64,000 nt of DNA from Seonamhaeicola sp. MEBiC01930 (GCF_045277075.1 NZ_CP104270.1:1524631-1588630); one strand, 5' to 3'; positions 7,863-56,230 are shown, counted from the stretch's first letter. Notes: generated by a model not told the origin, from the sequence alone. Numbers and translations are program-made.

Positions 7863-7890
7863 GATTTGGTGTTTTTAACGTTTTACATTA

Positions 7891-7898
7891 CAAATATA
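7891..7898 (-). promoter_or_regulatory. Bacteroidetes-type -7 box TAtaTTTG upstream of paralog copy 1; the same box recurs before copy 2 (8729-8736) and as TAaaTTTG before copy 3 (9568-9575)
   Basis: TAnnTTTG motif about 30 nt upstream of each ATG, inside a conserved intergenic block. Confidence 0.4.
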
Positions 7899-8061
7899 TA
7901 ATAGGAAAAAAACTTATAAAACATTGATATTCACCGATTTATATGCTAAATTATCTGTTATTTTTAGGATAACTTTAGGTTAAGTTAATAGGGTTTATGG
8001 CATGGTTAATTTCACATATATTTAAGAGATCATGCTTTTAGCCAAAATAAAGGTCAAAAAA

Positions 8062-8086
8062 AAAGTGGGCCACCACAGCCCACTTT
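8062..8086 (-). terminator. rho-independent terminator (stem GTGGGC, loop CACCACA, stem GCCCAC, plus T-run on minus) downstream of copy 2; identical copies at 8903-8927 and 9763-9790
   Basis: perfect 6-bp stem with T8 run on the minus strand; repeated three times. Confidence 0.6.
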
Positions 8087-8113
8087 ACCAACTAAACTAA
8101 ATAAGACATTAAA

Positions 8114-8701
8114 CTAGTTATTAATGTATTTTGTATATGTTTTATCATTAGAGTTAAATACAATCTTGTAGTTTCCTCTTTCTAATTTTAAAACACGTTC
8201 TATATTTTCTTTACCTTTAATGGTTTCAGTGAATAATAATTCAGAAGCACCACTACTGTATAAACCATATACATTTATTTTTAATGGCTCTAATTCTGGG
8301 GCAAGCTTGGTAATGTAAACTAAATCGTTATGTTTTTGAACAAATGGTTTAAAAATAATAGTCTCCTTATCTTTATCAAAGACTGCAATGTTAGACTTTA
8401 CATTAAACGGAATAGTTTTAATTGTTATGTCTTTATCTAATTCAAAGAAATAACTGCCATCAGGTAATTCTGTTAAATCAAACCCTTTAGTATAACTACC
8501 AGATTGTTCAATAATTTCTGTATAAAGGGTACTACCATTAATGTCTTTAATAGAAAGAAGGTTACCTTCTTTTACATTATTAATAGTTAATGCGGTAATT
8601 CTTAAATCTCTTCCGTCAATTTCATTAGCGAAACCCATAACCGTAGCTAACATGGCTACCATTAAAATTCCTTTTTTTGTGTTGTTTAATACGTTTTTCA
8701 T
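8114..8701 (-). CDS. secreted hypothetical protein, tandem paralog copy 2 (195 aa)
   Basis: about 85% identical to copy 3; signal peptide. Confidence 0.6.
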   Translation of the reverse strand: MKNVLNNTKKGILMVAMLATVMGFANEIDGRDLRITALTINNVKEGNLLSIKDINGSTLYTEIIEQSGSYTKGFDLTELPDGSYFFELDKDITIKTIPFNVKSNIAVFDKDKETIIFKPFVQKHNDLVYITKLAPELEPLKINVYGLYSSGASELLFTETIKGKENIERVLKLERGNYKIVFNSNDKTYTKYINN

Positions 8702-8951
8702 GATTTGGTGTTTTTAACGTTTTACACTACAAATATATAGTAGGGAATAAATTTATAAAACATTGATATTCACTAATATATGTGCTAAATTATCTGTTAT
8801 TTTTATGATATGTTTAGGTAAAGTTAATTGGGTTTATAGCATGGTTAATTTCACATATATTTTGAGAGATCATGGTTTTACCAAAAATAAGGGCAAAAAA
8901 AAGTGGGCCACCACAGCCCACCTTACCAACTAAACTAAATAAGACATTAAA

Positions 8952-9539
8952 CTAGTTATTAATGTATTTTGTATATGTTTTATTATTAGAGTGAAATACA
9001 ATTTTGTAGTCTCCTTTGTCTAATTTTAAAACACGCTCTATATTTTCTTTACCTTTAATAGTTTCAGTGAATAGTAATTCAGAGGCACCTCCACTATATA
9101 GGCCATATACATTTATTTTTAATGGCTCTAACTCAGGGGCAAGTTTGGTGATGTAAACTAAATCATTGTCCGTTTTAACAAAAGGCTTAAAAATAATAGT
9201 TTCCTTTTCTTTATTAAAGGTTGCAATATTTGATTTAACCGTAAATGGAATAGTTTTAATTTCTATATCCTTGATTAATTCAAAGAAATACTTTCCATCA
9301 GGTAATTCTGTTAAATCAAACCCTTTTGTATAGCTACCAGATTGTTCAATAGTTTCTGTATATATTATACTACCATTAATATCTTTAATAGATAGAAGGT
9401 TACCTTCTTTTACATTATTAATAGTTAATGCAGTAACTTTAAAATCTCTTCCGTCAATTTCATTAGCGAAACTCATAACCGTAGCTAACATGGCTACCAT
9501 TAAAATTCCTTTTTTTGTGTTGTTTAATACGTTTTTCAT
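8952..9539 (-). CDS. secreted hypothetical protein, tandem paralog copy 3 (195 aa)
   Basis: about 85% identical to copy 2; signal peptide. Confidence 0.6.
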   Translation of the reverse strand: MKNVLNNTKKGILMVAMLATVMSFANEIDGRDFKVTALTINNVKEGNLLSIKDINGSIIYTETIEQSGSYTKGFDLTELPDGKYFFELIKDIEIKTIPFTVKSNIATFNKEKETIIFKPFVKTDNDLVYITKLAPELEPLKINVYGLYSGGASELLFTETIKGKENIERVLKLDKGDYKIVFHSNNKTYTKYINN

Positions 9540-26240: not shown

Positions 26241-26277
26241 ATTGTAATGTTATCGTGTCTTTACAGACATAGTATTC

Positions 26278-27120
26278 ATGACGCACTCATTTTCTGAATT
26301 TTCTACAAATGCGCTATTAAAGGTTGGCGATGAATCTTTATTGGCACCTTATAAATCTTCTAAACGATTAGATATTTATGTGTTTATTAGAACTTCAATA
26401 ACTAAGGCAGAGGTTGTAGTAGATAGTGTTCCAATAAGTATACCTACAAATAGTATTCTGGCGTTGACGGCAGTTCAGTATTTTCAATTTTTAAAAGGAG
26501 AAAACCTTAAAGTGTATTTCTTTAACAGAGAGTTTTATTGTATTAAAGATCATGACCAGGAAGTTGGTTGCGCGGGTTTACTATTTTTTGGAAATGTTCA
26601 AAACCCTATAATTTATTTAGACGATAAAGAGCAGTCTAAATTCAATGTATTGCATGAAGTTTTTGTTGATGAACTAGAAACCAAAGATACTATTCAAGCT
26701 GAAATGCTACGTATGCTCATGGCGCGTTTTATAATTAAAAGTACTAGGTTGTTAAAGGCTAAAGAGGAATTAAGTGATACTACCAAAAACTCTAAAACAG
26801 AATTATTGAGAGCTTTTAATGTTTTAGTAGAAGAACATTTTAGAACAGAACATAGTGTGCAATTCTATGCTAATGCTCTGTTTAAATCTCCAAAAACCTT
26901 GTCTAACAGTTTTGCCAAATTAAATACAAGTCCGTTAAAAATTATTCATGAGCGTATAGTTTTGGAAGCAAAACGCCTTTTAATATATACCGAAAAGACT
27001 TTAAAGGAAATTGCCTATGAAGTAGGTTTTGAGGATGCTTCTCATTTAAGCCGTTTGTTTAAAAAGTATACCGCCGTAACTCCGTCCGATTTCAAGAAAC
27101 AACACAAATTAGCTTCTTAG
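26278..27120 (+). CDS. AraC-family transcriptional regulator
   Basis: C-terminal HTH_18 KTLKEIAYEVGFEDASHLSRLFKK. Confidence 0.8.
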   Translation: MTHSFSEFSTNALLKVGDESLLAPYKSSKRLDIYVFIRTSITKAEVVVDSVPISIPTNSILALTAVQYFQFLKGENLKVYFFNREFYCIKDHDQEVGCAGLLFFGNVQNPIIYLDDKEQSKFNVLHEVFVDELETKDTIQAEMLRMLMARFIIKSTRLLKAKEELSDTTKNSKTELLRAFNVLVEEHFRTEHSVQFYANALFKSPKTLSNSFAKLNTSPLKIIHERIVLEAKRLLIYTEKTLKEIAYEVGFEDASHLSRLFKKYTAVTPSDFKKQHKLAS

Positions 27121-27211
27121 GGAAAAATTGACAAAACCAAAGGAAATCTGTCTATGGTTTCTAACTTGGTTAAAATTCATCTTTGTACTGTATAATTAAA
27201 ACAACAAAGTC

Positions 27212-27379
27212 ATGAATTTAAAACACATATCAATTTTCAACCTTATTGAAATATTTAGAGGAAAAAGAAGTAATCAAAATCATTTAATTATCCCAGAAAA
27301 ACATTGTGAGCACAAGCAATTGCATGATTTTTATTGTGATTCTGATGAGGCTCATAATAAGACAAAAGTTGTTCTTTAA
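27212..27379 (+). CDS. hypothetical 55-aa Cys/His-containing small protein (MNLKHISIFNLIEIFRGKRSNQNHLIIPEKHCEHKQLHDFYCDSDEAHNKTKVVL); not in the >=60-aa ORF track
   Basis: ATG at 27212 and TAA at 27377; preceded by a copy of a duplicated upstream motif. Confidence 0.3.
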   Translation: MNLKHISIFNLIEIFRGKRSNQNHLIIPEKHCEHKQLHDFYCDSDEAHNKTKVVL

Positions 27380-27497
27380 CTTTTATTGGGAAGAATTGAC
27401 TCTTCAAAGGGAAATTTAATCATGGTATAATAGGCTCTTTAGAAGCAACTTTGTACCGAACAAATAACAAATTTTTAAACATTATAAATATAAAATT

Positions 27498-28046
27498 ATG
27501 AGCACATTTAAAGTACCAACAAGAAATGAAGTAAGTGAAAACAATCAAGTAATTTTTGATAATCTTAATAAAGCATTGGGGTTTGTACCTAATTTATATG
27601 CTACTTATGCACATAGTGATACGGCCCTAGAAAATTATTTAACCTTTTCAAATGCTAAAACATCATTATCGGCTAAAGAGAAAGAAGTGGTGAATTTAGC
27701 CGTGAGTGAAGTTAATCAATGTGTGTATTGCCTATCTGCACATACTGCTATAGGAAAAATGAACGGATTTACAGATGAACAAATTTTGGAATTAAGAACG
27801 GGAGCAGCTTCATTTAATTCAAAATTAGATGCTTTAGCACGATTATCAAGAAACATCACTGAAAATAGAGGTTCTACCGATGATGAAGTTCTTGAAAACT
27901 TTTTTAATGAAGGATATTCAAGAGGCAATTTAATTGATGTGATTTCATTGGTTGGAGATAAAACCATTTCAAATTATTTACATAAAACTACACAAGTACC
28001 TGTTGATTTCCCAGAAGTACAACCTTTAGAAATTGCAGCTGTATAG
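27498..28046 (+). CDS. carboxymuconolactone decarboxylase-family (AhpD-like) peroxidase-related protein
   Basis: CMD motif NQCVYCLSAHT. Confidence 0.8.
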   Translation: MSTFKVPTRNEVSENNQVIFDNLNKALGFVPNLYATYAHSDTALENYLTFSNAKTSLSAKEKEVVNLAVSEVNQCVYCLSAHTAIGKMNGFTDEQILELRTGAASFNSKLDALARLSRNITENRGSTDDEVLENFFNEGYSRGNLIDVISLVGDKTISNYLHKTTQVPVDFPEVQPLEIAAV

Positions 28047-28083
28047 TAATAAACCAAGTATTAATTTATAATTTTAATAAACA

Positions 28084-28452
28084 ATGAAACATTTAATTTC
28101 AACATTAGTTATAGCATTCATATTTACAATTAATATAAATGCTCAAGAAGTAAAAACTATTGCTTTAGAACAAACAAAAGGAGAATTTACGCAAAAAGAG
28201 GTAACCGTAAATGAAGGTACTTATGTGTTTGCGGTGTCAAATAATCATGCTGCTATGGAAGTGGGACTGGTATTAGTGCAAAAAGGGAAAGATGCAAGTA
28301 ACCCTGATAACCATATTAAAACAGCCTATGTTACAGAAGTGGTTAAAGAAGGTGAAACACAAAAAACAAAGCCCACTAAGTTAACAAAAGGAGAGTACGT
28401 ATATTTCTGTCCTTTAAACCCCACACCACAGTACACCCTAAAAGTACAATAG
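28084..28452 (+). CDS. secreted hypothetical protein (122 aa)
   Basis: signal peptide; terminator follows at 28473-28505. Confidence 0.5.
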   Translation: MKHLISTLVIAFIFTININAQEVKTIALEQTKGEFTQKEVTVNEGTYVFAVSNNHAAMEVGLVLVQKGKDASNPDNHIKTAYVTEVVKEGETQKTKPTKLTKGEYVYFCPLNPTPQYTLKVQ

Positions 28453-28472
28453 TTATAGTTAACTCTTAATAG

Positions 28473-28505
28473 CAAAAACCCTCCATAATTATGGAGGGTT
28501 TTTTA
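28473..28505 (+). terminator. rho-independent terminator (stem AACCCTCCATAATTATGGAGGGTT, then T-run)
   Basis: long palindrome followed by T6. Confidence 0.65.
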
Positions 28506-28581
28506 TAAGAATCAGGAAATTTGACCAAACTCCAATAATGTGTTTTTATTTATCTTTAAATAATTAACTAACATATTTAAA

Positions 28582-29409
28582 ATGAAATCCACTTACATTT
28601 CTGCTTTAATTGTTTTTGTGTTTTTAATGGGATGCAAAAATGAATCGAATATTCCACCTGTTTCTACCCCGGAAACCACCGAATCATCAAAAAGAAAAAT
28701 AATAGACCTTACTCATGAGTTTTCTGAAGAAACCGTGTATTGGGTAACAGCCAAAGAATTTGAAATGGATGTAGTTGCGGAAGGACACACAGACCACGGT
28801 TACTATTATGCAGCAAATAATTTTACCACTGCGGAGCATGGAGGAACCCATATTGATGCACCTATTCATTTTGCGGAAAATAAACAGTATGTAAATGAGA
28901 TTCCTTTAGAAAATCTTATTGGTCCAGCTATAAAAGTTGATGTTTCTGAACGTGCCTTAGCTAACCCCGATTATTTGGTAAGTGTTGAAGATTTCACCAA
29001 TTGGGAAAAGGAGAATGGCATAGAAATTCCCAATGGCAGTATTGTGCTATTAGAAACAGGTTTTTCAAAATACTATCCGGACAAAAAGAAATATTTAGGC
29101 ACTGACCAGAGAGGTCCTGAAGCTGTTAAACTATTACACTTTCCTGGGTTGTCTCCTGAAGCTGCTCAGTGGTTGGTTGATAGCAGAAAAATCAATTCCA
29201 TTGGCCTTGATACACCAAGTATAGACTATGGGCAATCAAAATTATTTAAGGCACATGTAATTTTACTATCTGAAAATATACCAGCATTTGAAAACTTAAC
29301 AAATCTAGACAAGTTGCCTTCAAAAGATTTTGAAGTGGTTGCTCTTCCTATGAAAATTAAAGGCGGTAGTGGTGCTCCGCTGCGTATTGTGGCATTTGTA
29401 AATGACTAA
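28582..29409 (+). CDS. cyclase-family protein (kynurenine formamidase-like), lipoprotein
   Basis: motif HGGTHIDAPIHF; lipobox LMGCK. Confidence 0.8.
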   Translation: MKSTYISALIVFVFLMGCKNESNIPPVSTPETTESSKRKIIDLTHEFSEETVYWVTAKEFEMDVVAEGHTDHGYYYAANNFTTAEHGGTHIDAPIHFAENKQYVNEIPLENLIGPAIKVDVSERALANPDYLVSVEDFTNWEKENGIEIPNGSIVLLETGFSKYYPDKKKYLGTDQRGPEAVKLLHFPGLSPEAAQWLVDSRKINSIGLDTPSIDYGQSKLFKAHVILLSENIPAFENLTNLDKLPSKDFEVVALPMKIKGGSGAPLRIVAFVND

Positions 29410-29454
29410 GAGTTATAATGTCATTGGATTATGGATTTTAAAACCGTTATTATG

Positions 29455-30276
29455 CTAATTGAAGTTAGCATAAGAAACGCCACTTTCATTCATAAAAGTA
29501 TTACCCTTATTATTTAAATCTAATGGTTCGCCGTTAAAACTTGTTGCGGGTAATCCAAGTTCTTGATAAATACAGGCTGTAGCAGCATAATCCCAAATAC
29601 TACCTCCTCCATTACTTTTCTTTGGAAGTTTTAAAAAGCATGCAGGCCCATTTTCTAAAGCTAAAATGGCGCACATAACAGCGCCAGCACCAGAAATTTC
29701 TTTAATCTCTTTTAACCCAAAATTAGTCAATTGATTATTCAGAATATCTTTAATTTCTTCAGATTTAGGTGTGTCCTTTAGTTTTTTATCAGTGATATAG
29801 GTTAAATAATCATTTGTGTTTTTAATGGTCCATATTTTTTTGTTTTTGTAAGCACCATTAGCTTTTACAGCATGGTATAAGGTGCTTGTGCTAGGGTCAA
29901 AAACTACACCAATAATAGGAGTACCATCTCTAGAGATTAAAGCAATGGATACAGAAAATCCGGCGTGCTTATTAATAAATGCCAATGTGCCATCCATAGG
30001 GTCTACACACCAAAAGAAGTCTTTTTCAAGTCGGCTACCATCGTCTGTGGTTTCCTCAGATAATAAACCTATATCGTGTGCTTCACAAGTTGGTTTTAAA
30101 TGCGATAAAATAATGCTTTCGCATTCACGGTCTACTTTTGTTACTACTTGAGAGGCGTAAGTAGAACCTCCTTCTTTAGTCTCTACAGTTATGTTATCAT
30201 TCATATATTTCTGAATGACTTTTCCAGCTGAAGTGGCAGCTTCAATGGCAATATTTGCTAGATGTTGTAAGTCCAT
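29455..30276 (-). CDS. inositol monophosphatase family protein / 3'(2'),5'-bisphosphate nucleotidase (CysQ-like)
   Basis: IMPase motifs WCVDPMDGT and GGGSIWDYAA. Confidence 0.75.
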   Translation of the reverse strand: MDLQHLANIAIEAATSAGKVIQKYMNDNITVETKEGGSTYASQVVTKVDRECESIILSHLKPTCEAHDIGLLSEETTDDGSRLEKDFFWCVDPMDGTLAFINKHAGFSVSIALISRDGTPIIGVVFDPSTSTLYHAVKANGAYKNKKIWTIKNTNDYLTYITDKKLKDTPKSEEIKDILNNQLTNFGLKEIKEISGAGAVMCAILALENGPACFLKLPKKSNGGGSIWDYAATACIYQELGLPATSFNGEPLDLNNKGNTFMNESGVSYANFN

Positions 30277-30278
30277 AA

Positions 30279-31226
30279 TTATAGATTTTTAATGACTTCG
30301 GTAGTGATACGTTCGCTATAACTATTAATTTTCCAATGGCCGGGGCTCCAGCCTTTTAAAAACCGATGAAAATCTGCCCATGCAACACGATATAGCGGTC
30401 GCCATTCATTTTCTAGGGCTTCATTTTTTTTACCAAGTGCTTTATGCAAATAGCTAAAGTAAGTGTCTAATATTTTAGTTTCCATGCGCTCGCAATCACT
30501 TTCATAGAGGCAACTACCAATAAAATAAGCAACATCTTTTATACCACATCCACCGCCAACATATTGAAAATCTACTCCGGCAACTTGTCCGTTTTCTGAA
30601 AAACAAAAGTTTGCCAATTTTGCATCGCCATGAACAAATGTTTGAAAGTTACAGTTGTTGAGTTTATTGTCAATAGCGGCAGCAGCCTTTTTCAAGGCTT
30701 TATCTTCTAAAACCTCTAATTCTTGAGGTCTAGTTTCTAAATGCCAATAAGTGCCAACATTCCAAAGTCCGTTAGGTATTTTTCCCAAATAACTAGCATG
30801 AAATTGTGCTAACCATTCTAAACAAGTTTCTATATCTGTCCATACTACATCTTGTTTTCGTAATGGGAAACCAGCTTCATCCAAGTCCTCAAGTACTATA
30901 AGCACTTCGTCTTGATGACGCTCCATAGCAAAACACTTTGGCAAACGTGCCATACTATTTTTGCTATGCTGGTTGTACCATGTGGTTTCTACTTCATAAG
31001 ATTTTAGTTTTCTTTGATGCCCAATATCAGTATTCCATCCTCTTGGGTGATTGCTCTTTCTAGGTAATTGAACATGTTTGACAATAACGCTTTCTATAGG
31101 CGAGTTTTCTAGAGCAACACGTATAATTTTACCATAACCACTCCATAATTCTTGAATGACTTCTTTTTCCTTTAAAGATGAGGCTCCAGTTTTTTGTAGA
31201 ATTACAGATTTAAAATAATCGTTCAT
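30279..31226 (-). CDS. aminoglycoside/choline-kinase-like phosphotransferase (APH/EcKL-like)
   Basis: Brenner motif [10 protein letters not shown]; DFQ-type metal-binding motif VDFQYVG. Confidence 0.6.
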
Positions 31227-31395
31227 AGGGTTTCAAAGGTAGGGAATTGAGGAATTTTAAAATACCATTTAATTTTGATATTTAATAAGCTGTTAGCAAG
31301 TGCACACGCGTAAGCGATTGTAGCGGCATCCTTTTGCTTTTTTGTAAAGGATATAGCGAAACATTTCTGTTCATGAATTCATTAATTTGAAATAG

Positions 31396-31427
31396 AAAAT
31401 CATGAATAAAAGCGCGACCCCGCCAAA
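31396..31427 (-). terminator. rho-independent terminator for the SPFH gene (stem ACCCCGC, loop, stem GCGGGGT, then T-run on minus)
   Basis: 7-bp GC stem followed by TTTTATT on the minus strand. Confidence 0.6.
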
Positions 31428-31450
31428 AGCGGGGTTACGCCCTAAAACAC

Positions 31451-32551
31451 CTATTTACTCACAGAGAAAATATCTTTTAATTGTGTTACAATACCACCAT
31501 TACCAGAAACGGTAATCTCACCAATTTTGTCGGCAATTTTTTCAACATATTCCATCTCTTTTAGTTTGTACAGCATGTCATTCTCTTCCATCAACTTTGC
31601 CGTATTTAACAAACTACGGGTAGAAGCTGTTTCTTCACGTCTTGTAATAATGTTGGCTTGTGCACGTTTTTGAGCTACTAATACTTGGTTCATAATCTCT
31701 TTCATGTCTCCAGTTAAGATGACGTCTCTAATACCGCAGTTCAATACGCTTACACCTAATTTTTCTGCAGCTGTTTTAACATTTTCAAACACCGCTTCTG
31801 CAATGTTGTCTTTACGTTCTAACAACTCATCTAAAGTGTAAGCGCCAACGTAGGCACGTAACACCAATTGCATTGCAATGTATAATTGCTTTTCGTAGTC
31901 TTTGTTTTCTAATAAAGCTTTTTCAATATCGGTAACTTTGTACTGAGTGTAAAAGTTGATACGGATAGCCGCTTTATCTTTAGTTAACAATTCCTGACCC
32001 GCAATTTCTAATTGTAACTGACGCAAATCAGCCTTTGCAATTTTAATTGAGGTGTCGTTTCGCCAGAATCTGTAAATACCACCCGTTAAGGTTTTAGCAT
32101 AAACATCATCTACTAAAAGCACCGCTTTTTCGTAAGCAGCAACCTCAAAGGTTCTAATATACTTGCTTAATTCATAGTTGCTGAACAAAGCCTTGTCTAG
32201 CTTTTCAGTAATATAAATTTTGCTTAAGTCTAATCGTGTAAATTCACGCTCAATTAAGCCCTTCCAGTACACGTAACGTCCGGCAGTTAAAATGGTTTTA
32301 AAGTTTCCTTTTTCGTAAACTAAAACCAATTCGCTGTCCTTTACTTCAATTACGTCTAACATTGCCGCAAGCGTTTCGTCTTTTAGTAAGATTTCTAACG
32401 CTATAGGGGCTGTAAAGGCATTCTCTAAGCTATAAATAAGCGCACGTTGCTTAAAACCTAACCAATGTTTTCCTTCTGTAATTACTTTTAGGTAATCACC
32501 TTTTTTGAAAACTAAACCTACTTTTCCTGCATTAATTCTTACTCGTTTCAT
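31451..32551 (-). CDS. SPFH/band-7 (stomatin/flotillin-like) family protein
   Basis: PHB-domain similarity; coiled-coil C-terminus. Confidence 0.7.
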   Translation of the reverse strand: MKRVRINAGKVGLVFKKGDYLKVITEGKHWLGFKQRALIYSLENAFTAPIALEILLKDETLAAMLDVIEVKDSELVLVYEKGNFKTILTAGRYVYWKGLIEREFTRLDLSKIYITEKLDKALFSNYELSKYIRTFEVAAYEKAVLLVDDVYAKTLTGGIYRFWRNDTSIKIAKADLRQLQLEIAGQELLTKDKAAIRINFYTQYKVTDIEKALLENKDYEKQLYIAMQLVLRAYVGAYTLDELLERKDNIAEAVFENVKTAAEKLGVSVLNCGIRDVILTGDMKEIMNQVLVAQKRAQANIITRREETASTRSLLNTAKLMEENDMLYKLKEMEYVEKIADKIGEITVSGNGGIVTQLKDIFSVSK

Positions 32552-32671
32552 TTTTACATTTTTTAAAATTAAACATTCGCTTTTGCCCTTTTAAAGGCGG
32601 TGGCAATTCCTGTAACGGAGGGTTTACCAACTTCAATTCTCAATACGAGTACACTGAGTTTTAAAGTATAT

Positions 32672-32770
32672 TTTTGGGCGTTACCCACAAGGGGTCGGGC
32701 TTTCCGTACATAGTTTTGGTTCGATGCACGCCTCACCAAAAGCTAACCACTTCAATCCCTAACGCGATAA
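32672..32770 (-). repeat. conserved non-coding element copy A in the 5' leader of the SPFH gene; second copy at 36422-36576
   Basis: shared blocks GGGCGTTACC(C)ACAAGGG(G)TCGGGCTTTCC and CTAACCAYTTCAATMCCTAACGC in both copies. Confidence 0.55.
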
Positions 32771-33080
32771 TTCGTCTTAAAAACAGCAGATTAAAAATCA
32801 TCTGTCCAGTACGGAGATACTCATATTAATAACCATTAATAAATAGTGTTATGTGTTGGGTCATAAAAAGGACGTATCAAATCAATTAATACTTGGTTTC
32901 TAATTCTGAACACAAAACAGTAGTTATAGCTAACTATTAAAAATCAGTATGTCTAAGTACTTTCAAGATTGCTTTGGCTTTGGGAGCACCAATGCTGATT
33001 CATAATCTCACTGTTTTTGCCATTTTTATTAAGTAGTGTGACAGACTACTGTTATCAGTTTTACAAGATGATAAGCTTCA

Positions 33081-33125
33081 ACCTACATTATGAGTGTAGT
33101 GCTCTACCCACTGAGCTACGAGGCC
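33081..33125 (-). pseudogene. 5' half (positions 1-44) of a tRNA-Met(CAT) gene, lying immediately 3' of its own 3' fragment (circularly permuted order)
   Basis: minus-strand sequence GGCCTCGTAGCTCAGTGGGTAGAGCACTACACTCATAATGTAGG: acceptor, D arm and anticodon arm are perfect, then the sequence diverges. Confidence 0.55.
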
Positions 33126-33130
33126 TAAAA

Positions 33131-33163
33131 TGGTGGCCTCGACAGGATTCGAACCTGTGACCT
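33131..33163 (-). pseudogene. 3' fragment of a tRNA (variable loop, T arm, acceptor 3' strand, encoded CCA) whose acceptor strand exactly complements the tRNA-Met 5' half 5 nt downstream
   Basis: minus-strand sequence AGGTCACAGGTTCGAATCCTGTCGAGGCCACCA; no matching 5' half lies upstream. Confidence 0.55.
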
Positions 33164-33330
33164 AAATGAGACATTTTTACAGAATGTCAACTGTTCGCTA
33201 GAACCCTAATCTAGTGCGTCTGCCATTTCCGCCATATCCCCCGTTTGGGAAATAGTGGGACTCGAACCCACACGAATTGGTGGATTTTTTTGGATGAAAT
33301 CCTAACCTTCAAGTCTAGTTGAATATAAAA
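33164..33330 (-). other. tRNA-like fragments. A Leu-like 5' part (GGGGATATGGCGGAAATGGCAGACGC plus anticodon-like hairpin CTAGA-TTAGGGT-TCTAG) lies downstream of a T-arm/acceptor fragment (GTGGGTTCGAGTCCCACTATTTCC) whose acceptor strand pairs with it. This is a second permuted arrangement
   Basis: D-arm similarity to type-II tRNA-Leu; acceptor GGGGATA pairs with TATTTCC through two G-U wobbles. Confidence 0.35.
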
Positions 33331-33450
33331 CCGCAATACTTTCATGCAACGATTTATACAATAGTGCTATACCGAAACACTCAACAAGACCAGCTTGATG
33401 CTGTTTCCTGCGTAAGCAGGAATATCATTCATTCAATGAACTTAATATTG

Positions 33451-33523
33451 CGGAACAGACAGGAATCGAACCTATATCTATGCATTTTCAGTGCAGCGCA
33501 TTGACCAACTTTGCTACTGTTCC
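33451..33523 (-). tRNA. tRNA-Phe (GAA); D stem is weak
   Basis: acceptor GGAACAG/CTGTTCC; anticodon loop CTGAAAA; T arm GGTTCGATTCC. Confidence 0.6.
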
Positions 33524-33529
33524 TTTTTG

Positions 33530-33599
33530 AGCATCCATCAAGATTCGAACTTGATCTTAGAGGATATACCTCTTGTGCGAGCCATTACACTATAGATGC
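33530..33599 (-). tRNA. tRNA-like gene with an aberrant anticodon arm (5-bp stem AGAGG/CCTCT with a 5-nt loop TATAT); possible pseudogene
   Basis: good acceptor GCATCTA/TGGATGC, D arm and T arm (TCAAGTTCGAATCTTGA); no 7-nt anticodon loop. Confidence 0.35.
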
Positions 33600-33633
33600 T
33601 CCATACCAATTATCAACCATTAATTGGTGTTTT

Positions 33634-33706
33634 GGGTGACTTCGGGATTCGAACCATGTTCTTCTCATCCACAATGAGACGTTTTACCAATTAAACTAAA
33701 GACACC
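33634..33706 (-). tRNA. tRNA-His (GTG)-like with G-1; T stem and acceptor each carry mismatches, so possibly a pseudogene
   Basis: anticodon arm TCTCA-TTGTGGA-TGAGA; D arm with U8, A14, G18, G19; T stem CATGG/CCCGA does not pair. Confidence 0.4.
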
Positions 33707-33710
33707 ATTT

Positions 33711-33783
33711 TGGATAACCTGAAAGGATTTGAACCTTTACCTCAAGAGTCAAATTCTTGAATGCTGCCATTACACCACAGGTT
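33711..33783 (-). tRNA. tRNA-Gln (TTG), CCA encoded
   Basis: acceptor TAACCTG/CAGGTTA; anticodon loop ATTTGAC; T arm AAAGGTTCAAATCCTTT. Confidence 0.8.
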
Positions 33784-33790
33784 ATTTTTG

Positions 33791-33863
33791 TAAGCTTAAT
33801 AGGATTCGAACCCATACTTCAAGGTTCGTAGCCTTGAGTGCTATCCAATTACACCATAAGCTT
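33791..33863 (-). tRNA. tRNA-Arg (ACG)
   Basis: acceptor AAGCTTA/TAAGCTT; anticodon loop CTACGAA; canonical D and T arms. Confidence 0.8.
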
Positions 33864-33868
33864 ATTTG

Positions 33869-33942
33869 TACTCTACCCAAGATTCGAACTTGGACTGAAC
33901 GGAGTTTAAGACCGATGCCTCTTCCAGTTGGGCTAGTAGAGC
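33869..33942 (-). tRNA. degenerate tRNA-like gene with good acceptor and T arm but disrupted D and anticodon stems; likely a pseudogene
   Basis: T arm CCAAGTTCGAATCTTGG; acceptor GCTCTAC/GTAGAGT; anticodon region TCGGTCTTAAACTCCGT forms only 3 bp. Confidence 0.3.
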
Positions 33943-33947
33943 TTAAG

Positions 33948-34021
33948 TACAGGAAGAGAGATTCGAACTCCCAGTTTCTCGAGTCTAAGTCGAGCGCGTT
34001 TTCCCATTTCGCCATTCCTGC
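33948..34021 (-). tRNA. tRNA-Leu(TAG)-like: Leu-type D arm and TAG anticodon, discriminator A73, but the long variable arm is missing, giving a 74-nt type-I architecture
   Basis: D arm TGGCGAAATGGGAAAACGCG resembles tRNA-Leu; anticodon arm CTCGA-CTTAGAC-TCGAG; variable region only AAACT. Confidence 0.4.
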
Positions 34022-34026
34022 GTTTG

Positions 34027-34099
34027 TTGAGGTATTAGGAGTTGAACCCAAATCACCCGAGTTAAAAGCTCGGTGCTTTAACAATTAAGCTATACCTCA
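34027..34099 (-). tRNA. tRNA-Lys (TTT)
   Basis: anticodon arm CCGAG-CTTTTAA-CTCGG; T arm TTGGGTTCAACTCCTAA. Confidence 0.8.
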
Positions 34100-34105
34100 A
34101 TTTTG

Positions 34106-34177
34106 TACTCCGTAGGGGAATTGAACCCCTAATTCCACATAGAAAGTGTGGCGTCTTAACCATTTGACCAACGGAGC
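34106..34177 (-). tRNA. tRNA-Glu (TTC)
   Basis: anticodon arm CCACA-CTTTCTA-TGTGG; T arm AGGGGTTCAATTCCCCT. Confidence 0.8.
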
Positions 34178-34183
34178 AAATAT

Positions 34184-34200
34184 TTCGTCTGAGAAGTAGG
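34184..34200 (-). repeat. 17-nt direct repeat of the tRNA-Pro 3' end (TTCGTCTGAGAAGTAGG versus ...GCAGG), about 70 nt downstream of tRNA-Pro
   Basis: 16 of 17 nt identical to 34266-34282. Confidence 0.5.
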
Positions 34201-34269
34201 AATAACTTCGTTTTTCCTGCAATGTCTCAACTCGAACCAAATTCAAGTAAACTTGATTTGATTACTTCG

Positions 34270-34341
34270 TCTGAGAAGCAGGATTCGAACCTGCGACCTC
34301 CCGTGCCCAAGACGGGTAAACAACCACCGTTATCTTCCCAG
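34270..34341 (-). tRNA. tRNA-Pro (TGG)
   Basis: anticodon arm CCCGT-CTTGGGC-ACGGG; T arm GCAGGTTCGAATCCTGC. Confidence 0.75.
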
Positions 34342-34347
34342 ATTTTG

Positions 34348-34435
34348 CGGAGAGCAAAGGAATTGAACCTTCATTACCAAAACGGTAAACTCACTTAGCA
34401 GGTGAGCGCAACAAACCAATATTTGCCTACTCTCC
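34348..34435 (-). tRNA. tRNA-Ser (GCT), type II with long variable arm
   Basis: anticodon arm CTCAC-CTGCTAA-GTGAG; variable hairpin TACC-GTTTT-GGTA; T arm AAGGTTCAATTCCTT. Confidence 0.8.
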
Positions 34436-34441
34436 GGTTTG

Positions 34442-34513
34442 CGGTTCATACGAGAATCGAACTCGTTTCTCCCGAGAGACAATCGGGAAGGATAGCCATT
34501 ACCCCAATGAACC
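34442..34513 (-). tRNA. tRNA-Asp (GTC)
   Basis: anticodon arm CCCGA-TTGTCTC-TCGGG; acceptor GGTTCAT/ATGAACC. Confidence 0.8.
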
Positions 34514-34519
34514 AATTTG

Positions 34520-34591
34520 TATATCTACTAAGATTTGAACTTAGACTTAGAGTTTAGAAGACTCTCGTGCTATCCATTACACCATAGATAT
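34520..34591 (-). tRNA. tRNA-Arg (TCT)
   Basis: perfect cloverleaf; anticodon arm AGAGT-CTTCTAA-ACTCT. Confidence 0.85.
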
Positions 34592-34597
34592 GTGATG

Positions 34598-34680
34598 TGG
34601 GAATTGAAGGATTCGAACCTCCTAAGTTTAAAACAACTGTTTTACAGACAGTCCCAGCTCTCCAACGCTGACGAATTCCC
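34598..34680 (-). tRNA. tRNA-Tyr (GTA), type II
   Basis: anticodon arm ACTGT-CTGTAAA-ACAGT; 13-nt variable arm; acceptor GGGAATT/AATTCCC. Confidence 0.8.
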
Positions 34681-34697
34681 TTGAAAATCGGCAAAGG

Positions 34698-35231
34698 CTA
34701 CTTCGCCGATTTTTTAGCTTTCTTGCTTTTCTTTTTCTTCTTCTTTTTAGGTTTTATTTTTTTCTTAACACGGCTCAATTCGTTTTCTACATAGTTAATG
34801 ATGCAGTTATCAGTTGCTAGCTTAATTGATGTTTTGTAAACTTTTACAGCTGCTTTAAATTGACCTTGCTCTTCTAATAAAACCGCTTTGTAATAGTGTA
34901 AAATAGATTTGTTTACACCTTTTATAGTCAAAGCAAATGTTATCAGCTTTTCGGCTTCATCATAGTCTTCATTCCATAGTAATGTTTGAATGTAGAATGG
35001 ATAAGTTTTTGGCATTTCCATCTCATGAGCCACCGCTTCTGCATAATATTGTTTAGCTGTTTCGTAATCTTTTAATTGTTCAGCATAAACACGTCCCATT
35101 AAGCATAAGGCTTGAGCATCTTTACTGTTATATGATAAAGCGTAGTTCAATGCTTCCAAGGTTTCTTCTAACTCATATGGATAAGCATCTAAAGCTTTAA
35201 ACAAATAGTTGTTATGTAAATTATTTTCCAT
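34698..35231 (-). CDS. TPR-repeat protein with a poly-lysine C-terminal tail (KKKIKPKKKKKKKSKKAKKSAK)
   Basis: TPR-like repeats YAEQLKDYETAKQYYAEA...; tail encoded by an A/T homopolymer-rich tract. Confidence 0.65.
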   Translation of the reverse strand: MENNLHNNYLFKALDAYPYELEETLEALNYALSYNSKDAQALCLMGRVYAEQLKDYETAKQYYAEAVAHEMEMPKTYPFYIQTLLWNEDYDEAEKLITFALTIKGVNKSILHYYKAVLLEEQGQFKAAVKVYKTSIKLATDNCIINYVENELSRVKKKIKPKKKKKKKSKKAKKSAK

Positions 35232-35384
35232 TGTTTTAAATTTTAAGGCATTAGTTTTTAACCCATGTTAGGGTTAACATGCCTTGTTTTTTAAATAGTC
35301 TATAGAGACCTGTTTTAAATGCACACTAAAAAGTGGCTATTAAAACCGATTCAGACCGGTATTCTTAAATTTTAGGAATAAAAA

Positions 35385-35413
35385 AATCCGAAACAGTTTA
35401 CTTGCTTCGGATT
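35385..35413 (-). terminator. orphan rho-independent terminator (stem AATCCGAA, loop, stem TTCGGATT, then T-run on minus) inside a 690-bp gene-free region
   Basis: 8-bp stem followed by T7 on the minus strand; no annotated gene upstream within 400 bp. Confidence 0.45.
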
Positions 35414-35553
35414 CTTTTCTGGAAAATATACCTACTTAAAGCAGATGCGCAGAAAATACCGAAGCCTTGTGAGTGATTCAAAATCACTATACCTATTCCA
35501 AAAGGGTATACTATGTTGTAACATGACTTCTTTTTTTTATTAATATTTGTTTG

Positions 35554-35579
35554 TCAAACTGAGCGCAGTCGAAGTGTTC
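35554..35579 (+). repeat. short dispersed repeat GTCAAACTGAGCGCAGTCGAAGTGTT; related inverted copy inside the 42608-42687 element
   Basis: 26 of 28 nt identical to the reverse complement of 42660-42687. Confidence 0.5.
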
Positions 35580-35861
35580 TCCAAAATGCATATCAGAATA
35601 ACTATTATTTTTTTGTTGCAGTAGTTTGTTTAAAACTGCGATGCAAAGATTAGAACTATTTTTTAAATAACAAAACTTTTTTAAATATAATTACTTGATA
35701 ATCAAATAGTTAAATTGAAATTTAGATAATAGAATTCCTGTCCGCTTTTTAGCAGATACTTGAGGTTTTTGGCAAAAGTTTGTCTCCCAGTTGCTTATAC
35801 TTCAAAGGCCTATATTTTAGTTTTTAAAATCTTTATTCAATTAATTCTAAATTTTTTTCAA

Positions 35862-35895
35862 AAAAAAACGTCCAACACAAGTTGGACGTTTTAAA
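35862..35895 (-). terminator. rho-independent terminator for the TerB gene (stem ACGTCCAAC, loop ACAA, stem GTTGGACGT, then T9 on minus)
   Basis: 9-bp stem plus T-run. Confidence 0.65.
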
Positions 35896-35917
35896 TATGA
35901 TAGTTTTAAACTATTTC

Positions 35918-36349
35918 TTATCTATTCATATTCTTTATTTGGTCCACAAAATGATCTAAATCTGCTCCTTGACTAACTAAAGTAGTAGCTTTATCAATTA
36001 TGTATTTCACGTTTACTGCGTGAAAACCAAGTCCAACTGCAATTTTCTTCAACAATAACATTTCAGGTTCACCTTCAATATTATCAACATACACCATTCT
36101 TATTAAATCAAATAAACGCTCTAAACGTCTATCATAAGACACTGGCGGATTTATAGGGTGCGAATTATAATCTTTTAAAATAGCTTTATAATCTGCTTCA
36201 TTAATAGACAAATTATTTGCTAACCTATCTAAAAACGCTTTTTCTTCATCAGTAATTATGCCATCTGCCATAGCAACTCTAACTATTGACGCAAAATGAC
36301 TTTCATTACGTTTTTTAAATCCACTATCAAATAAATCTGAAATCGACAT
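35918..36349 (-). CDS. TerB-like (tellurite-resistance TerB fold) domain protein
   Basis: TerB-like helical repeats; acidic loop. Confidence 0.6.
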   Translation of the reverse strand: MSISDLFDSGFKKRNESHFASIVRVAMADGIITDEEKAFLDRLANNLSINEADYKAILKDYNSHPINPPVSYDRRLERLFDLIRMVYVDNIEGEPEMLLLKKIAVGLGFHAVNVKYIIDKATTLVSQGADLDHFVDQIKNMNR

Positions 36350-36421
36350 ATATTATTGTTTTTATCGTGCTGCAAACGTACATATTATTTTTAAGATTTT
36401 AAACCCAAATTTCAATTTTTT

Positions 36422-36576
36422 GGGCGTTACCACAAGGGTCGGGCTTTCCTCATTTTTTTTTATTTTATAAGTATTTGTGAATATGAAAATATTTCACTAC
36501 TCAATCCCTCATTCGTTGGGGATTTGAAACATGAAACCTGTGGTGAGCGCTGTCTAACCATTCAATACCTAACGCA
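36422..36576 (-). repeat. conserved non-coding element copy B in the 5' leader of the TerB gene; carries an AT-rich insertion relative to copy A
   Basis: see the 32672-32770 entry; compensatory C/G insertion in hairpin ACC(C)-ACAA-GGG(G)T. Confidence 0.55.
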
Positions 36577-36839
36577 GGGAATATTTGTTGTTTGTTTTTT
36601 TTAATTTAAGATTGTTCCGGTCTTTGGAGAAGTTCGTTTAACGGACTTGTGTATGAAACGTAGCGTGTAAAAAGACACTAACTTTTCGGGTTAACACAGA
36701 GCCGAATTTTTATATTTTGTTTTTAATTTTTCTCTTTTTAAAAGCCAAATTAAAAATTTGGCGGACTTTCTAAATATACACAAACCTTTCGGTGAAGCAC
36801 TTATTAGCTATGTTTTATACACCGTGTTGTAAAACGTTT

Positions 36840-37313
36840 TTATTCCGTTGTTATATTCACTTTTGTTCCGTCAGGTAAATCTTTAATCTGTTTTTGAATT
36901 TGACCACTTAATTCAAAATGAACTTCTATGTCAGTTAATTCAAAATTTTCAGGCTCATATTCTCCTCCTAAAACTGGCAATTTTTTATATCCATAAAGAT
37001 GTTTGTCAGTTAGCTCAAGTCCACTTTCTTTTAATTTTTTTATTAATCCAATCAAAAACCATTCATCGACTTGTTCATTATCGTTTAATTTAGTTTTAAA
37101 TTCATCAATACTATTAGCGACTATTTCAAGGATTCCTTCTCCAACATTTAGCCAATAACAAACTCCATTATTATCTACAAGAAATAAATCACCAATACTC
37201 GACATTAAAATCGGTTTTTTATCAGTTCCAATTAACCAATTCCAACTTTCAGTCAGTCGGCTTTGGTCGATATGATTAAAATCTACTTTTAAATCGTCCC
37301 AAGTAATTTTCAT
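36840..37313 (-). CDS. hypothetical cytoplasmic protein (157 aa), possibly an immunity-protein-like fold
   Basis: ORF; start overlaps the upstream gene stop by 1 nt. Confidence 0.45.
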   Translation of the reverse strand: MKITWDDLKVDFNHIDQSRLTESWNWLIGTDKKPILMSSIGDLFLVDNNGVCYWLNVGEGILEIVANSIDEFKTKLNDNEQVDEWFLIGLIKKLKESGLELTDKHLYGYKKLPVLGGEYEPENFELTDIEVHFELSGQIQKQIKDLPDGTKVNITTE

Positions 37314-37693
37314 TATTCGTATTGATTTAGTTCATATAATATATGATTTTTCATATCCACAGCAGAAACGTGAATAGTATTAAAATCTGAATTCGGAAAT
37401 CCAGCTAATTCTATGTTTTCCTTCTCCAAATCAGTTAACCAGTCCATAAATTCGTGAATGTCATATTCAACAATTTTATAGTTTTTCCAATCGTCAATTA
37501 GGAATAATTCTGCAAATTCTTTTTCAGGCCAAACAGGAATAACACTTAAATCATTTGAACCTATCATAACATATTTGTCTTCGTTATCTGCAATCAGATA
37601 AATTGTTTCAAAATCGGCTACTTTTCTCAGGAGGTAACCATACCTTTCTTTTGAGTTAAGAGCAAAAATGTTATTTATTTTCTGGTGGTTCAT
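37313..37693 (-). CDS. hypothetical protein (126 aa), DUF2750-like
   Basis: motif ERYGYLLRKVADFETIYLI...IPVWP, recalled from memory as DUF2750-like. Confidence 0.45.
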   Translation of the reverse strand: MNHQKINNIFALNSKERYGYLLRKVADFETIYLIADNEDKYVMIGSNDLSVIPVWPEKEFAELFLIDDWKNYKIVEYDIHEFMDWLTDLEKENIELAGFPNSDFNTIHVSAVDMKNHILYELNQYE

Positions 37694-37896
37694 TTAAATG
37701 TTTTACAACGTGGAGATAGACTTCCGTTTTAATGAAGTTTATCGATTGTTAAACGAAGTTCGGTAATTTTTCTGACAAAGTCAAGCTTAGTAAAGCATTG
37801 TATGAAACAAATTTTTTTTTATGAAGCGTAGAATTAATCATTCTCAAAAATAAATTTAACCCCTATATTTGCATTCGTTAAAACGACTTTCATTAA

Positions 37897-56156: not shown

Positions 56157-56230
56157 TCCTCAGTAGCTCAGTTGGTTAGAGCATCTGACTGTTAATCAGA
56201 GGGTCGTTGGTTCGAGCCCAACCTGAGGAG
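56157..56230 (+). tRNA. tRNA-Asn (GTT)
   Basis: acceptor TCCTCAG/CTGAGGA; D arm AGCTCAGTTGGTTAGAGC; anticodon loop CTGTTAA; T arm GTTGGTTCGAGCCCAAC. Confidence 0.9.

Follow-up and report, generated by a model that had tools for sequence, protein, structure and literature searches.

A stretch of 64,000 nucleotides from the chromosome of Seonamhaeicola sp. MEBiC01930 (GCF_045277075.1 NZ_CP104270.1:1524631-1588630), referred to here as the window, carries fourteen tRNA genes packed head to tail on its minus strand, between a gene for a TPR-repeat protein and a conserved non-coding RNA that is itself followed by a gene for a slipin of the Band-7 (SPFH) family. This layout (TPR gene, tRNA array, conserved non-coding RNA, slipin gene) is kept across Flavobacteriaceae and more distant relatives. 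We propose that the array is a dispensable reserve tRNA operon with a fast turnover of genes, forming the variable part of a conserved Band-7/slipin RNA-repair locus, and that it would serve in translational rescue after tRNA damage; we put the probability of this reading, which is built on sequence comparison, at roughly 55%. The locus matches the 'Band-7-associated tRNA' RNA-repair system predicted in 2016, of which it would be the Flavobacteriaceae form.

A first-pass annotation of the window had described at least 14 closely packed tRNA genes on the minus strand. This is confirmed by ARAGORN, which found exactly 14, head to tail, at 33450-34680 (14 genes in 1.23 kb, a density of 11 tRNA genes per kb), and by the Rfam models. 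In the order of transcription they are as follows.

34597-34680, minus strand: tRNA-Tyr(GTA), ARAGORN; long variable region, A73; the usual first array member
34519-34591, minus strand: tRNA-Arg(TCT), ARAGORN; Rfam 66.1 bits; acceptor stem of A and U only
34441-34513, minus strand: tRNA-Asp(GTC), ARAGORN; Rfam 51.3 bits; G73
34347-34435, minus strand: tRNA-Ser(GCT), ARAGORN; Rfam 37.3 bits; long variable arm, G73
34269-34341, minus strand: tRNA-Pro(TGG), ARAGORN; Rfam 32.8 bits; C1-G72, A73, weak D arm
34105-34177, minus strand: tRNA-Glu(TTC), ARAGORN; Rfam 63.0 bits; G1.U72, A73
34026-34099, minus strand: tRNA-Lys(TTT), ARAGORN; Rfam 66.3 bits; A73
33947-34021, minus strand: tRNA-Leu(TAG), Rfam 65.1 bits; 5-nt variable region, G1.U72, A73
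33868-33942, minus strand: tRNA-Leu(TAA), Rfam 45.8 bits; short variable region
33790-33863, minus strand: tRNA-Arg(ACG), ARAGORN; Rfam 61.9 bits; A73
33711-33784, minus strand: tRNA-Gln(TTG), ARAGORN; Rfam 59.6 bits; U1-A72
33634-33706, minus strand: tRNA-His(GTG), Rfam 46.7 bits; encoded G-1, C73
33529-33599, minus strand: odd tRNA-like gene (ARAGORN 'Tyr-ATA'); no Rfam tRNA match
33450-33523, minus strand: tRNA-Phe(GAA), Rfam 68.1 bits; G73; the usual last array member

The gathering score of the Rfam tRNA model (29) was reached by 12 of the 14 genes, with E-values as low as 4.5e-14, a result well outside what chance would give; by comparison, 80 unrelated 23-kb Flavobacteriaceae loci contained two tRNAs in total. 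Tyr-GTA was matched solely by the Rfam tRNA-Sec model, at 33.5 bits and under the cut-off of 47; it has 19 orthologs in the same position at other loci, with an invariant anticodon loop (CTGTAAA). The Arg-TCT slot is also filled in locus L147. The sole other tRNA gene of the window, at 56157, is a canonical tRNA-Asn (71.6 bits; ARAGORN and Rfam). The array had further been described as a mixture of well-formed and odd tRNAs, and the ARAGORN folds and Rfam alignments agree, down to the four members singled out as aberrant (the odd gene, His and the two Leu genes). The reported spacing of 4-7 nt applies to eleven of the thirteen spacers, which are 4-5 nt long by the ARAGORN coordinates, and fails for the other two:

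33600-33633, minus strand: 34-nt spacer holding a 7-bp palindromic hairpin, CCAATTA...TAATTGG
34178-34268, minus strand: 91-nt gap between Pro and Glu, with a T-loop-like GGTTCGAGT and a second tRNA-Pro 3' end that includes the trailer

The position of the array was followed through related genomes by using the slipin gene as an anchor, together with the TPR gene:

31451-32551, minus strand: slipin (Band-7/SPFH) gene, 366 aa; Pfam Band_7, 5.3e-28; the conserved anchor of the locus
34698-35231, minus strand: gene for a TPR-repeat protein, 177 aa; Pfam TPR families; Lys-rich C-terminal tail

A further 80 loci came from a search of metagenomes with the slipin. The array counts are based on the 53 slipin loci with at least 3.5 kb of upstream sequence, which include the window, Seonamhaeicola marinus (L085) and Flaviramulus sp. 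BrNp1-15 (L087). Across Flavobacteriaceae genera the slipin homologs are 76-91% identical (91% for S. marinus). Same-strand arrays of 1-18 tRNAs were present in 34 of the 53 loci, with three or more tRNAs in 27; these related arrays end 0.6-2.9 kb before the slipin gene, and that of the window ends 899 nt upstream of it. The core order in Flavobacteriaceae is Tyr, Asp, (Ser/Cys/Pro), Glu, (Val), Lys, Leu-TAG, Leu-TAA, Arg-ACG, Gln, (His), (odd), Phe, with the TPR gene directly upstream; homologs of the TPR protein (49-74% identity) precede the array or the non-coding RNA in the Flavobacteriaceae loci. Arrays of 7-18 genes persist in many lineages with slipins 57-88% identical to that of the window. 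As slot and core order are shared, position and order are therefore inherited and content, which ranges from 0 to 18 genes, is not. This fits the earlier suppositions that the array is not a core tRNA set conserved in identical form and that it changes quickly, its content varying even between close relatives.

At one end of this range, six Flavobacteriaceae loci (L085, L101, L104, L106, L109 and L115) hold no tRNA, with the TPR gene, the conserved RNA and the slipin gene intact; it follows that these tRNAs must be encoded elsewhere in those genomes. S. marinus has, one after another, mfd, a terB-like gene, the TPR gene, 1.2 kb of non-coding sequence and the slipin gene. The corresponding gap in Flaviramulus contains Tyr-GTA, the odd 'ATA' tRNA seen also in the window, and Phe-GAA, which correspond to the first and the last two members of the window array. 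Anchoring on mfd had given a different picture: the array was found in 0 of 80 loci and was at first read as a strain-specific insertion, a view overturned by the slipin anchoring. The array travels with the slipin and TPR genes and not with mfd, and the mfd result reflects broken synteny rather than a lack of the array in those genomes. A lone array-type tRNA-Tyr was seen approximately 1.1 kb upstream of mfd in a Flavobacteriaceae metagenome-assembled genome (L009 3211-3291) and may be a one-gene version of the locus. In two loci a gene for an RNaseH-like protein (PF04308) lies between the tRNA array and the conserved RNA (L102 2417-2902, L120 3257-3739), and in a third ARAGORN reported a tRNA-like gene with a stop-reading anticodon, TTA, just downstream of the slipin gene (L154 6151-6236).

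The tRNA families that make up these arrays are unevenly represented: Asp 24, Leu-TAG 21, Tyr 19, Pro 15, Phe 14, Arg-ACG 13, Gln 13, Leu-TAA 10, Glu 9, Lys 8, His 8 and Asn 7, with one each of Gly and Val and no Ala, Thr or Met in the arrays directly upstream of slipin. Anticodon nucleases are known to cleave Tyr, His, Asn and Asp tRNAs (colicin E5), Arg (colicin D), Lys (PrrC and PARIS) and Glu, Gln and Lys (the gamma-toxin type). The families of the array are largely those cut by known anticodon nucleases, an overlap that is suggestive.

In relatives, the neighbors of the array include genes of RNA repair. RtcB homologs were detected by tblastn in 19 slipin loci, often directly after the slipin gene, and RlaP in 6. 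By Pfam, L100 has RtcB upstream of the TPR gene and array, and L159 has RlaP (annotated 'RNA repair pathway'); in L123 the order is slipin-RtcB-DUF5677-RlaP. The RtcB-linked slipins (L123-L136, among others) align over their full length with that of the window at 57-61% identity, and their loci share the upstream RNA, so that the window slipin may be assigned to the RtcB-linked Band-7 clade. The RlaP gene of L123 (8788-11070) is seemingly split by a DUF559 endonuclease-like open reading frame (ORF), and a second RlaP-like gene lies downstream. The tail of the TPR protein is basic in most homologs, with 13-18 K/R among the last 30 aa in 10 of 14 loci, and this suggests RNA or ribosome binding. 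An example of a Lys-rich tail is KKKIKPKKKKKKKSKKAKKSAK, and homologs occur in L085, L087, L095, L097, L100, L101, L106, L109 and L115. As quoted in a preprint (bioRxiv 10.1101/312249), Burroughs and Aravind (2016) predicted a tRNA associated with Band-7 (b7a-tRNA) beside Band-7 and RtcB; the same text states that YrlA RNA sometimes adjoins a Band-7 gene and that the system had no experimental validation as of the preprint. The rtc locus of P. aeruginosa contains an SPFH gene (PMC13086221), and TPR genes are listed among the accessories of RtcB systems (Burroughs and Aravind 2019).

The third constant part of the locus, downstream of the array, is a structured RNA:

33073-33402, minus strand: conserved structured non-coding RNA; 5' multi-stem domain at about 33402-33281, followed by a chain of circularly permuted tRNA-like modules
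Module 1, minus strand: T arm 33271-33255, acceptor hairpin 33254-33235, then D arm, anticodon-like arm and variable hairpin
Module 2, minus strand: T arm about 33158-33142, acceptor hairpin CGAGGCC-ACCATTTTA-GGCCTCG at 33141-33119, D arm, and anticodon-like arm with a CAT loop, ending near 33083
32552-33072, minus strand: rest of the non-coding stretch upstream of slipin, with blastn blocks conserved within Flavobacteriaceae

In blastn searches, positions 33399-33254 showed 69-82% DNA identity to nearly all slipin loci, including those whose slipins are only 57-59% identical. A motif search found the element in 47 loci, and it accompanies all 34 tRNA arrays. RNAalifold, applied to 27 diverse sequences, gave a 5' multi-stem domain and a hairpin with a conserved TTTTCCAAAAAA loop, followed by a tRNA-like module closed by a 5-bp stem. 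This module has a T arm, an acceptor stem that is closed to form a hairpin, and a D arm; three pairs of the acceptor hairpin show 18, 12 and 9 double changes. Next come a second T arm, another acceptor hairpin with covariation, a D arm and an anticodon-like arm in which the 'anticodon' varies freely. In this alignment 96.2% of cells are paired and 33 of 58 pairs show compensatory change, a degree of pairing matched by 0 of 500 shuffles and compared with approximately 42% in slid controls. In the window the RNA forms a chain in which acceptor strands pair with those of the neighboring unit (TATTTCCC-AAAC-GGGGGATA and CGAGGCC-ACCATTTTA-GGCCTCG), and its middle unit resembles the 5' half of a long-arm phage-type Leu. 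The permuted halves had been taken as a sign of recent rearrangement; the compensatory base changes show them instead to be parts of a deeply conserved RNA. It reaches the threshold of no Rfam 15 family, its only match being to YrlA at 36.7 versus a cut-off of 69. A Flavo-1 motif in the adjoining stretch (32689-32770) was sub-threshold in the window (37.7 versus 42) and scored 53.4 in L087; as this motif is dispersed and occurs in both orientations (PMC9723704), it was rejected as a specific partner of the locus.

If the array is to act in translation, its unusual members have to be accounted for. The two Leu genes fall outside canonical class II tRNA-Leu, as they have a variable region of 5 nt in place of the long arm, and the same is seen in all the aligned copies (24 array and 2 phage genes); the array Leu-TAG genes include 20 orthologs of 74-75 nt. 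The short-arm cloverleaf is well maintained in this alignment, with 98.8% of cells paired, double changes at 17 of 20 pairs and a covariation score of 0.72, versus 0.18 for shuffles. A73, A15, U48 and G18G19 are invariant, and G1.U72 is present in 22 of 24. In E. coli the determinants of LeuRS are A73, the A15-U48 pair and G18G19, the long arm being dispensable (PMC9976931), and the set kept by the array genes would suffice for the E. coli enzyme.

The discriminators also obey bacterial identity rules family by family, and for this reason most array members are likely to be charged: G73 in Asp (17/17), Ser (6/7) and Asn (6/7); A73 in Tyr (19/19), Lys (8/8), Arg-ACG (10/12), Leu-TAG (18/20) and Leu-TAA (10/10); U73 in Cys (3/3); C1-G72 plus A73 in all 14 Pro genes; and C73 with an encoded G-1 in all 7 His genes. 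Glu (A73) and Gln (variable N73) deviate from these rules. Phe has A73 in 12 of 14 orthologs, yet G73 in the window copy.

The odd gene has normal acceptor, D and T arms, and a 5-nt loop, TATAT, closed by GG/CC. Its copies in L087 and L090 keep the GG-TATAT-CC loop unchanged as the acceptor stem covaries (three double changes between genera), and the copy in L091 is split by a D-loop insertion. It thus appears to be a conserved member that does not decode; because every copy has the 5-nt loop with G-C closing pairs, readings of the gene as a suppressor or as an Ile-TAT tRNA were set aside. The T stem of the window His gene has 2 Watson-Crick pairs, versus 3 in the family consensus (CAGGG/CCCGA, with A50.G64); the anomaly recurs in six further loci (L102, L120, L145, L159, L160 and L164), and the window copy has an additional G51-to-T change beyond this family defect. 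In window Leu-TAA the D stem has 3 bp and the anticodon stem contains two U.U mismatches; the stems are intact in its orthologs. Taken together, the alignments indicate that the unusual shapes (short-arm Leu, weak His T stem, A/U-rich stems) are traits of the lineage and not random decay, and that window Leu-TAA, His and the Pro-Glu remnant are in part degenerate relative to their own families, probably because of the fast gene turnover.

Evidence for such turnover came from the spacers and from insertions. The repeat of the tRNA-Pro 3' end in the 91-nt gap, at 34184-34201 (TCCTACTTCTCAGACGAA versus TCCTGCTTCTCAGACGAA), is real by sequence and had been likened to an integrase att site. It lies inside the array and does not flank it, the only significant match of the gap being 15 nt to Pro 3' ends, and it is the remnant of a decayed tRNA copy. 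In the related arrays 43 of 156 spacers exceed 60 nt, and split tRNA genes were found in 5 of the 47 gaps of 61-699 nt examined. Array genes in relatives (L091 2936-3076, 3432-3550 and 3710-3805; L103 3188-3309; L097 3522-3648; L090 3591-3726) are split; five array genes are interrupted by hairpin-forming insertions of 24-55 nt. Three of the insertions share one T-loop site, after TTC(G)AA, and start with ATGCnnnGCATTCA. A stricter motif that includes the T-loop junction matched only inside arrays, in 4 of 180 fetched loci, and the T-loop motif does not occur in the window. The insertions look like a family of mini insertion elements that targets tRNA T-loop DNA, gained or lost between arrays that are 97-98% identical. 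L090 and L091, for instance, are 98% identical in their shared parts and differ by a 274-nt block and by insertions splitting Leu-TAA, Ser and the odd gene. Since gene-splitting insertions are tolerated, the array genes look non-essential.

The following scheme could account for these observations. The array would be transcribed as a single precursor, probably by read-through from the TPR gene, because 17 nt separate the TPR stop codon from the first tRNA and no -7 box lies between them; on the minus strand of 32552-36372 there is no Bacteroidetes -7 box (TAnnTTTG), and sigma-70-type matches are no more frequent than expected by chance. In 181 of 193 array tRNAs (window and L087-L166) a C stands directly behind the discriminator and an A-rich run follows, giving a conserved N73-C-AAA trailer that may guide 3' processing. 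The precursor would be cut at the short spacers carrying this trailer, and CCA, which is unencoded in 13 of the 14 window genes, would then be added enzymatically. Host synthetases would charge the products, as the family-specific identity elements predict. When housekeeping tRNAs are cut or depleted by anticodon nucleases, similar toxins or other stress, these reserve isodecoders could sustain translation, acting together with the slipin and the tRNA-like RNA, and also with RtcB in loci that have it; the unusual shapes would be common in part to phage tRNAs under the same selection. Phage tRNA arrays are thought, according to the available text of one report, to counter tRNA-targeting defences (PMC12803027). 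A stress-reserve function is preferred here also for its parallel with the long tRNA array of Anabaena, which is induced together with rtcB under translational stress (PMC8421152).

Several points weigh against a reserve operon. Its expression, processing and aminoacylation are predictions, and its redundancy is deduced from relatives without an array. The bias toward nuclease targets may do no more than mirror the commonest codons of an AT-rich genome. The member with a 5-nt loop, the His T stem, the A73 of Glu, the variable N73 of Gln and the G73 of window Phe are all ill suited to efficient decoding. The 64-kb window showed no RtcB, RlaP or Ro gene (tblastn with RtcB and RlaP; Pfam on most ORFs of at least 110 aa), and b7a-tRNA may map either onto array members or onto the permuted modules.

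The main rival to a reserve function places the array members outside translation. Together with the permuted RNA they might be cofactors in the manner of Y RNA and Ro60, or scaffolds or decoys for the Band-7 protein and repair enzymes, for example by presenting or mimicking damaged tRNAs or by soaking up tRNA-cutting toxins. This is the role that, in the available text of the preprint, the discoverers of b7a-tRNA proposed for it (bioRxiv 10.1101/312249). The adjoining RNA, with its freely varying anticodon-like triplet, is a clear tRNA mimic, and the 5-nt-loop member is unable to decode, yet conserved. The pairs 49-65 and 50-64 of a tRNA matter for EF-Tu binding, and both are missing from the His T stem. 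A pure scaffold or decoy would, however, have no need of anticodons and synthetase identity elements conserved by family, and array sizes of 0-18 genes next to an RNA and a slipin that do not vary give no sign of a partner in fixed stoichiometry. We consider a cofactor or decoy role possible, if rather unlikely.

A more speculative scenario, which we hold with little confidence, is that of a ribonucleoprotein hub for tRNA damage, in which the chained, domain-swapped tRNA-like RNA would dock on an oligomeric slipin with the Lys-tailed TPR protein, holding broken tRNAs or presenting them for RtcB-type repair; the array would then supply toxin-resistant replacement isodecoders from a gene pool shared with phages and act as a tolerated landing pad for the T-loop-targeting mini insertion elements.

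Two further explanations treat the array as an ordinary set of tRNA genes, in decay or in use. A relic, that is, an old cluster eroding without present selection, would explain the remnants, the mismatched stems of window Leu-TAA and His, the gene-splitting insertions and the complete loss in some lineages; it is improbable, given that compensatory changes keep the stems across distant lineages, that anticodons and discriminators are conserved, and that the arrays of 7-18 genes persist over such a range of slipin divergence. A housekeeping operon lying upstream of slipin by chance would suit the conserved position, the mostly good cloverleaves and the identity elements kept. The six tRNA-less loci, the differing gene content of near-identical relatives and their tolerance of split and degenerate genes make it still harder to accept, as do scores of 33-51 bits for Pro, Ser, His, Leu-TAA and Asp versus 71.6 for the window Asn gene.

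The genomic setting bears on the last alternative, a mobile origin. The window is of approximately 31% G+C and contains ordinary chromosomal genes (MetRS, Tex, Mfd, FeoB, ZnuABC, TonB-dependent receptors and others), its Mfd being 93% identical to that of Seonamhaeicola sp. NFXS20 (L001). No integrase, transposase or phage gene was found by Pfam among most of its ORFs of at least 110 aa, and the only repeat is internal to the array, so integration of a phage or mobile element at a tRNA att site is not indicated. The region from tex to the terB-like gene (26241-35917) forms a variable hotspot: relatives in Algibacter and Flaviramulus have the terB-like gene and mfd directly after tex, and in the window an AraC regulator, CMD, a cupredoxin, a cyclase, an inositol monophosphatase, an EcKL kinase and the slipin locus lie between tex and the terB-like gene. 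A Tdi1_C gene (type VI secretion system immunity-like) and a DUF2750 gene form a pair between the terB-like gene and mfd (36450-37836). Right after the slipin gene lies a 47-bp GC-rich palindromic element, GGCGTAACCCCGCTTTTGGCGGGGTCGCGC (31409-31453), which in NFXS20 follows the TPR gene (L001 6706-6752) and is probably a dispersed repeat or terminator. Elsewhere in the window, three tandem ORFs of 195-199 aa without a Pfam match (7263-9539, minus strand) may be paralogs.

Phages do share tRNA types with the array. The T5-like Vibrio phage VspSw_1 has the same succession of Leu-TAG and Leu-TAA, both short-armed, its Leu-TAG being 84% identical, and short-arm genes are annotated as tRNA-Leu in T5-like, Felix O1-like, Gordonia and crAss-like phages. 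The short-arm Leu D-arm motif was found in 13 viral contigs, mostly with several tRNA genes; the exact Leu-TAG pattern matched nothing among viral contigs beyond the Vibrio phage already known and a single Leu of the normal long-arm type. A blastn search of the array region against phages gave single-tRNA matches only, at 73-83%, which without a bacterial baseline are no proof of phage origin, save for the short-arm Leu. Neither slipin nor the 5'-domain motif of the conserved RNA occurred in any viral contig. The tRNA types common to phages and arrays form a shared pool; the locus itself is cellular. A recently integrated island of phage- or element-derived tRNAs acquired horizontally, with the Pro repeat as its att scar, draws on the Leu pair shared with T5-like and other phages, on the lack of the array in the closest available genomes (NFXS20 and S. 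marinus) and on its place in a hotspot, and is largely refuted and very improbable, as was the mobile array of the first-pass annotation, by the lack of mobility genes in the window, the same slot and core order across many genera, the absence of slipin and conserved RNA from viral contigs and a repeat that lies inside the array and not at its borders.

The locus bears on two questions that date from the 2016 prediction, namely what bacterial RtcB repairs in vivo and why RtcB accompanies Band-7 proteins and tRNA-like RNAs. It is a concrete system for experiments, widespread in marine Flavobacteriaceae that can be cultured, with natural variants that have 0-18 spare tRNAs beside an invariant tRNA-mimic RNA and slipin. 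The short-arm tRNA-Leu type connects chromosomal spare-tRNA arrays with phage tRNA clusters and supports the idea of a shared response to tRNA-targeting toxins. In genome annotation, array tRNAs should be treated neither as core tRNAs nor as signs of a mobile element, and Rfam 15 lacks the permuted tRNA-like RNA. The class of system is known as a prediction of 2016, and we found no experiment on the Band-7 branch of RtcB systems in the literature searched; as far as we have checked, it is extended here by the arrays of several genes, with their dynamics and phage-type members, by the detail of the permuted RNA with its multiple modules, and by the T-loop mini-insertions.

Several known systems may be compared with this locus. 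The tRNA array units of Tran et al. 2016 (PMC4758250) and Morgado and Vicente 2018 (PMC5966550) resemble it in high gene density and non-core status. Their definition, as given in the available text, is at least 20 tRNA genes at two or more per kb; the window array has the density and, with 14 genes, not the number. Such units lie mostly on mobile elements in Firmicutes, Acidithiobacillus and mycobacteria, whereas the window array is chromosomal. The L-arrays of Santamaria-Gomez 2021 (PMC8421152) are closer, as they are likewise co-oriented, tightly spaced and made of supernumerary tRNA genes, and they occur sporadically in Bacteroidetes. L-arrays are described as spreading horizontally and often lie beside homing endonucleases, whereas the window array is shorter and sits in a fixed slot by slipin and the conserved RNA; its distribution is not the scattered one of horizontal transfer, and only the short-arm Leu type is common to phages.

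The tRNA clusters of phages (T5-like Demerecviridae, Felix O1-like, Gordonia and crAss-like) share with the array the very short spacers, the short-arm Leu genes (74-77 nt) and the order of Leu-TAG and Leu-TAA, at 75-84% identity. They differ in that the window locus is chromosomal and has no phage genes, and in that the aligned VspSw_1 copies encode CCA and the window genes mostly do not. YrlA (RF02553) has the same permuted topology as the conserved RNA, namely a closing stem, a T arm, a loop-closed acceptor stem and a D arm. The window RNA differs in having no Ro60-binding helix, the outer (Ro-binding) helices of the model being unmatched, in its extra 5' domains and at least two chained modules, and in its partner, which is slipin and not Ro60; no ORF with a TROVE domain was seen among those of the window scanned with Pfam, and the RNA is not placed with YrlA or Y RNA.

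The nearest relative remains the Band-7-associated tRNA system. As quoted, it has one tRNA-like gene, whereas the window has 14 (0-18 in relatives) with conserved anticodons and identity elements, and the window adds a separate multi-module permuted RNA and a TPR partner and shows no RtcB within its 64 kb. Common to both are tRNA-like genes adjoining a Band-7/SPFH gene, the linkage of the relatives of the window locus to RtcB and RlaP, and a YrlA-like permuted tRNA mimic beside the Band-7 gene.

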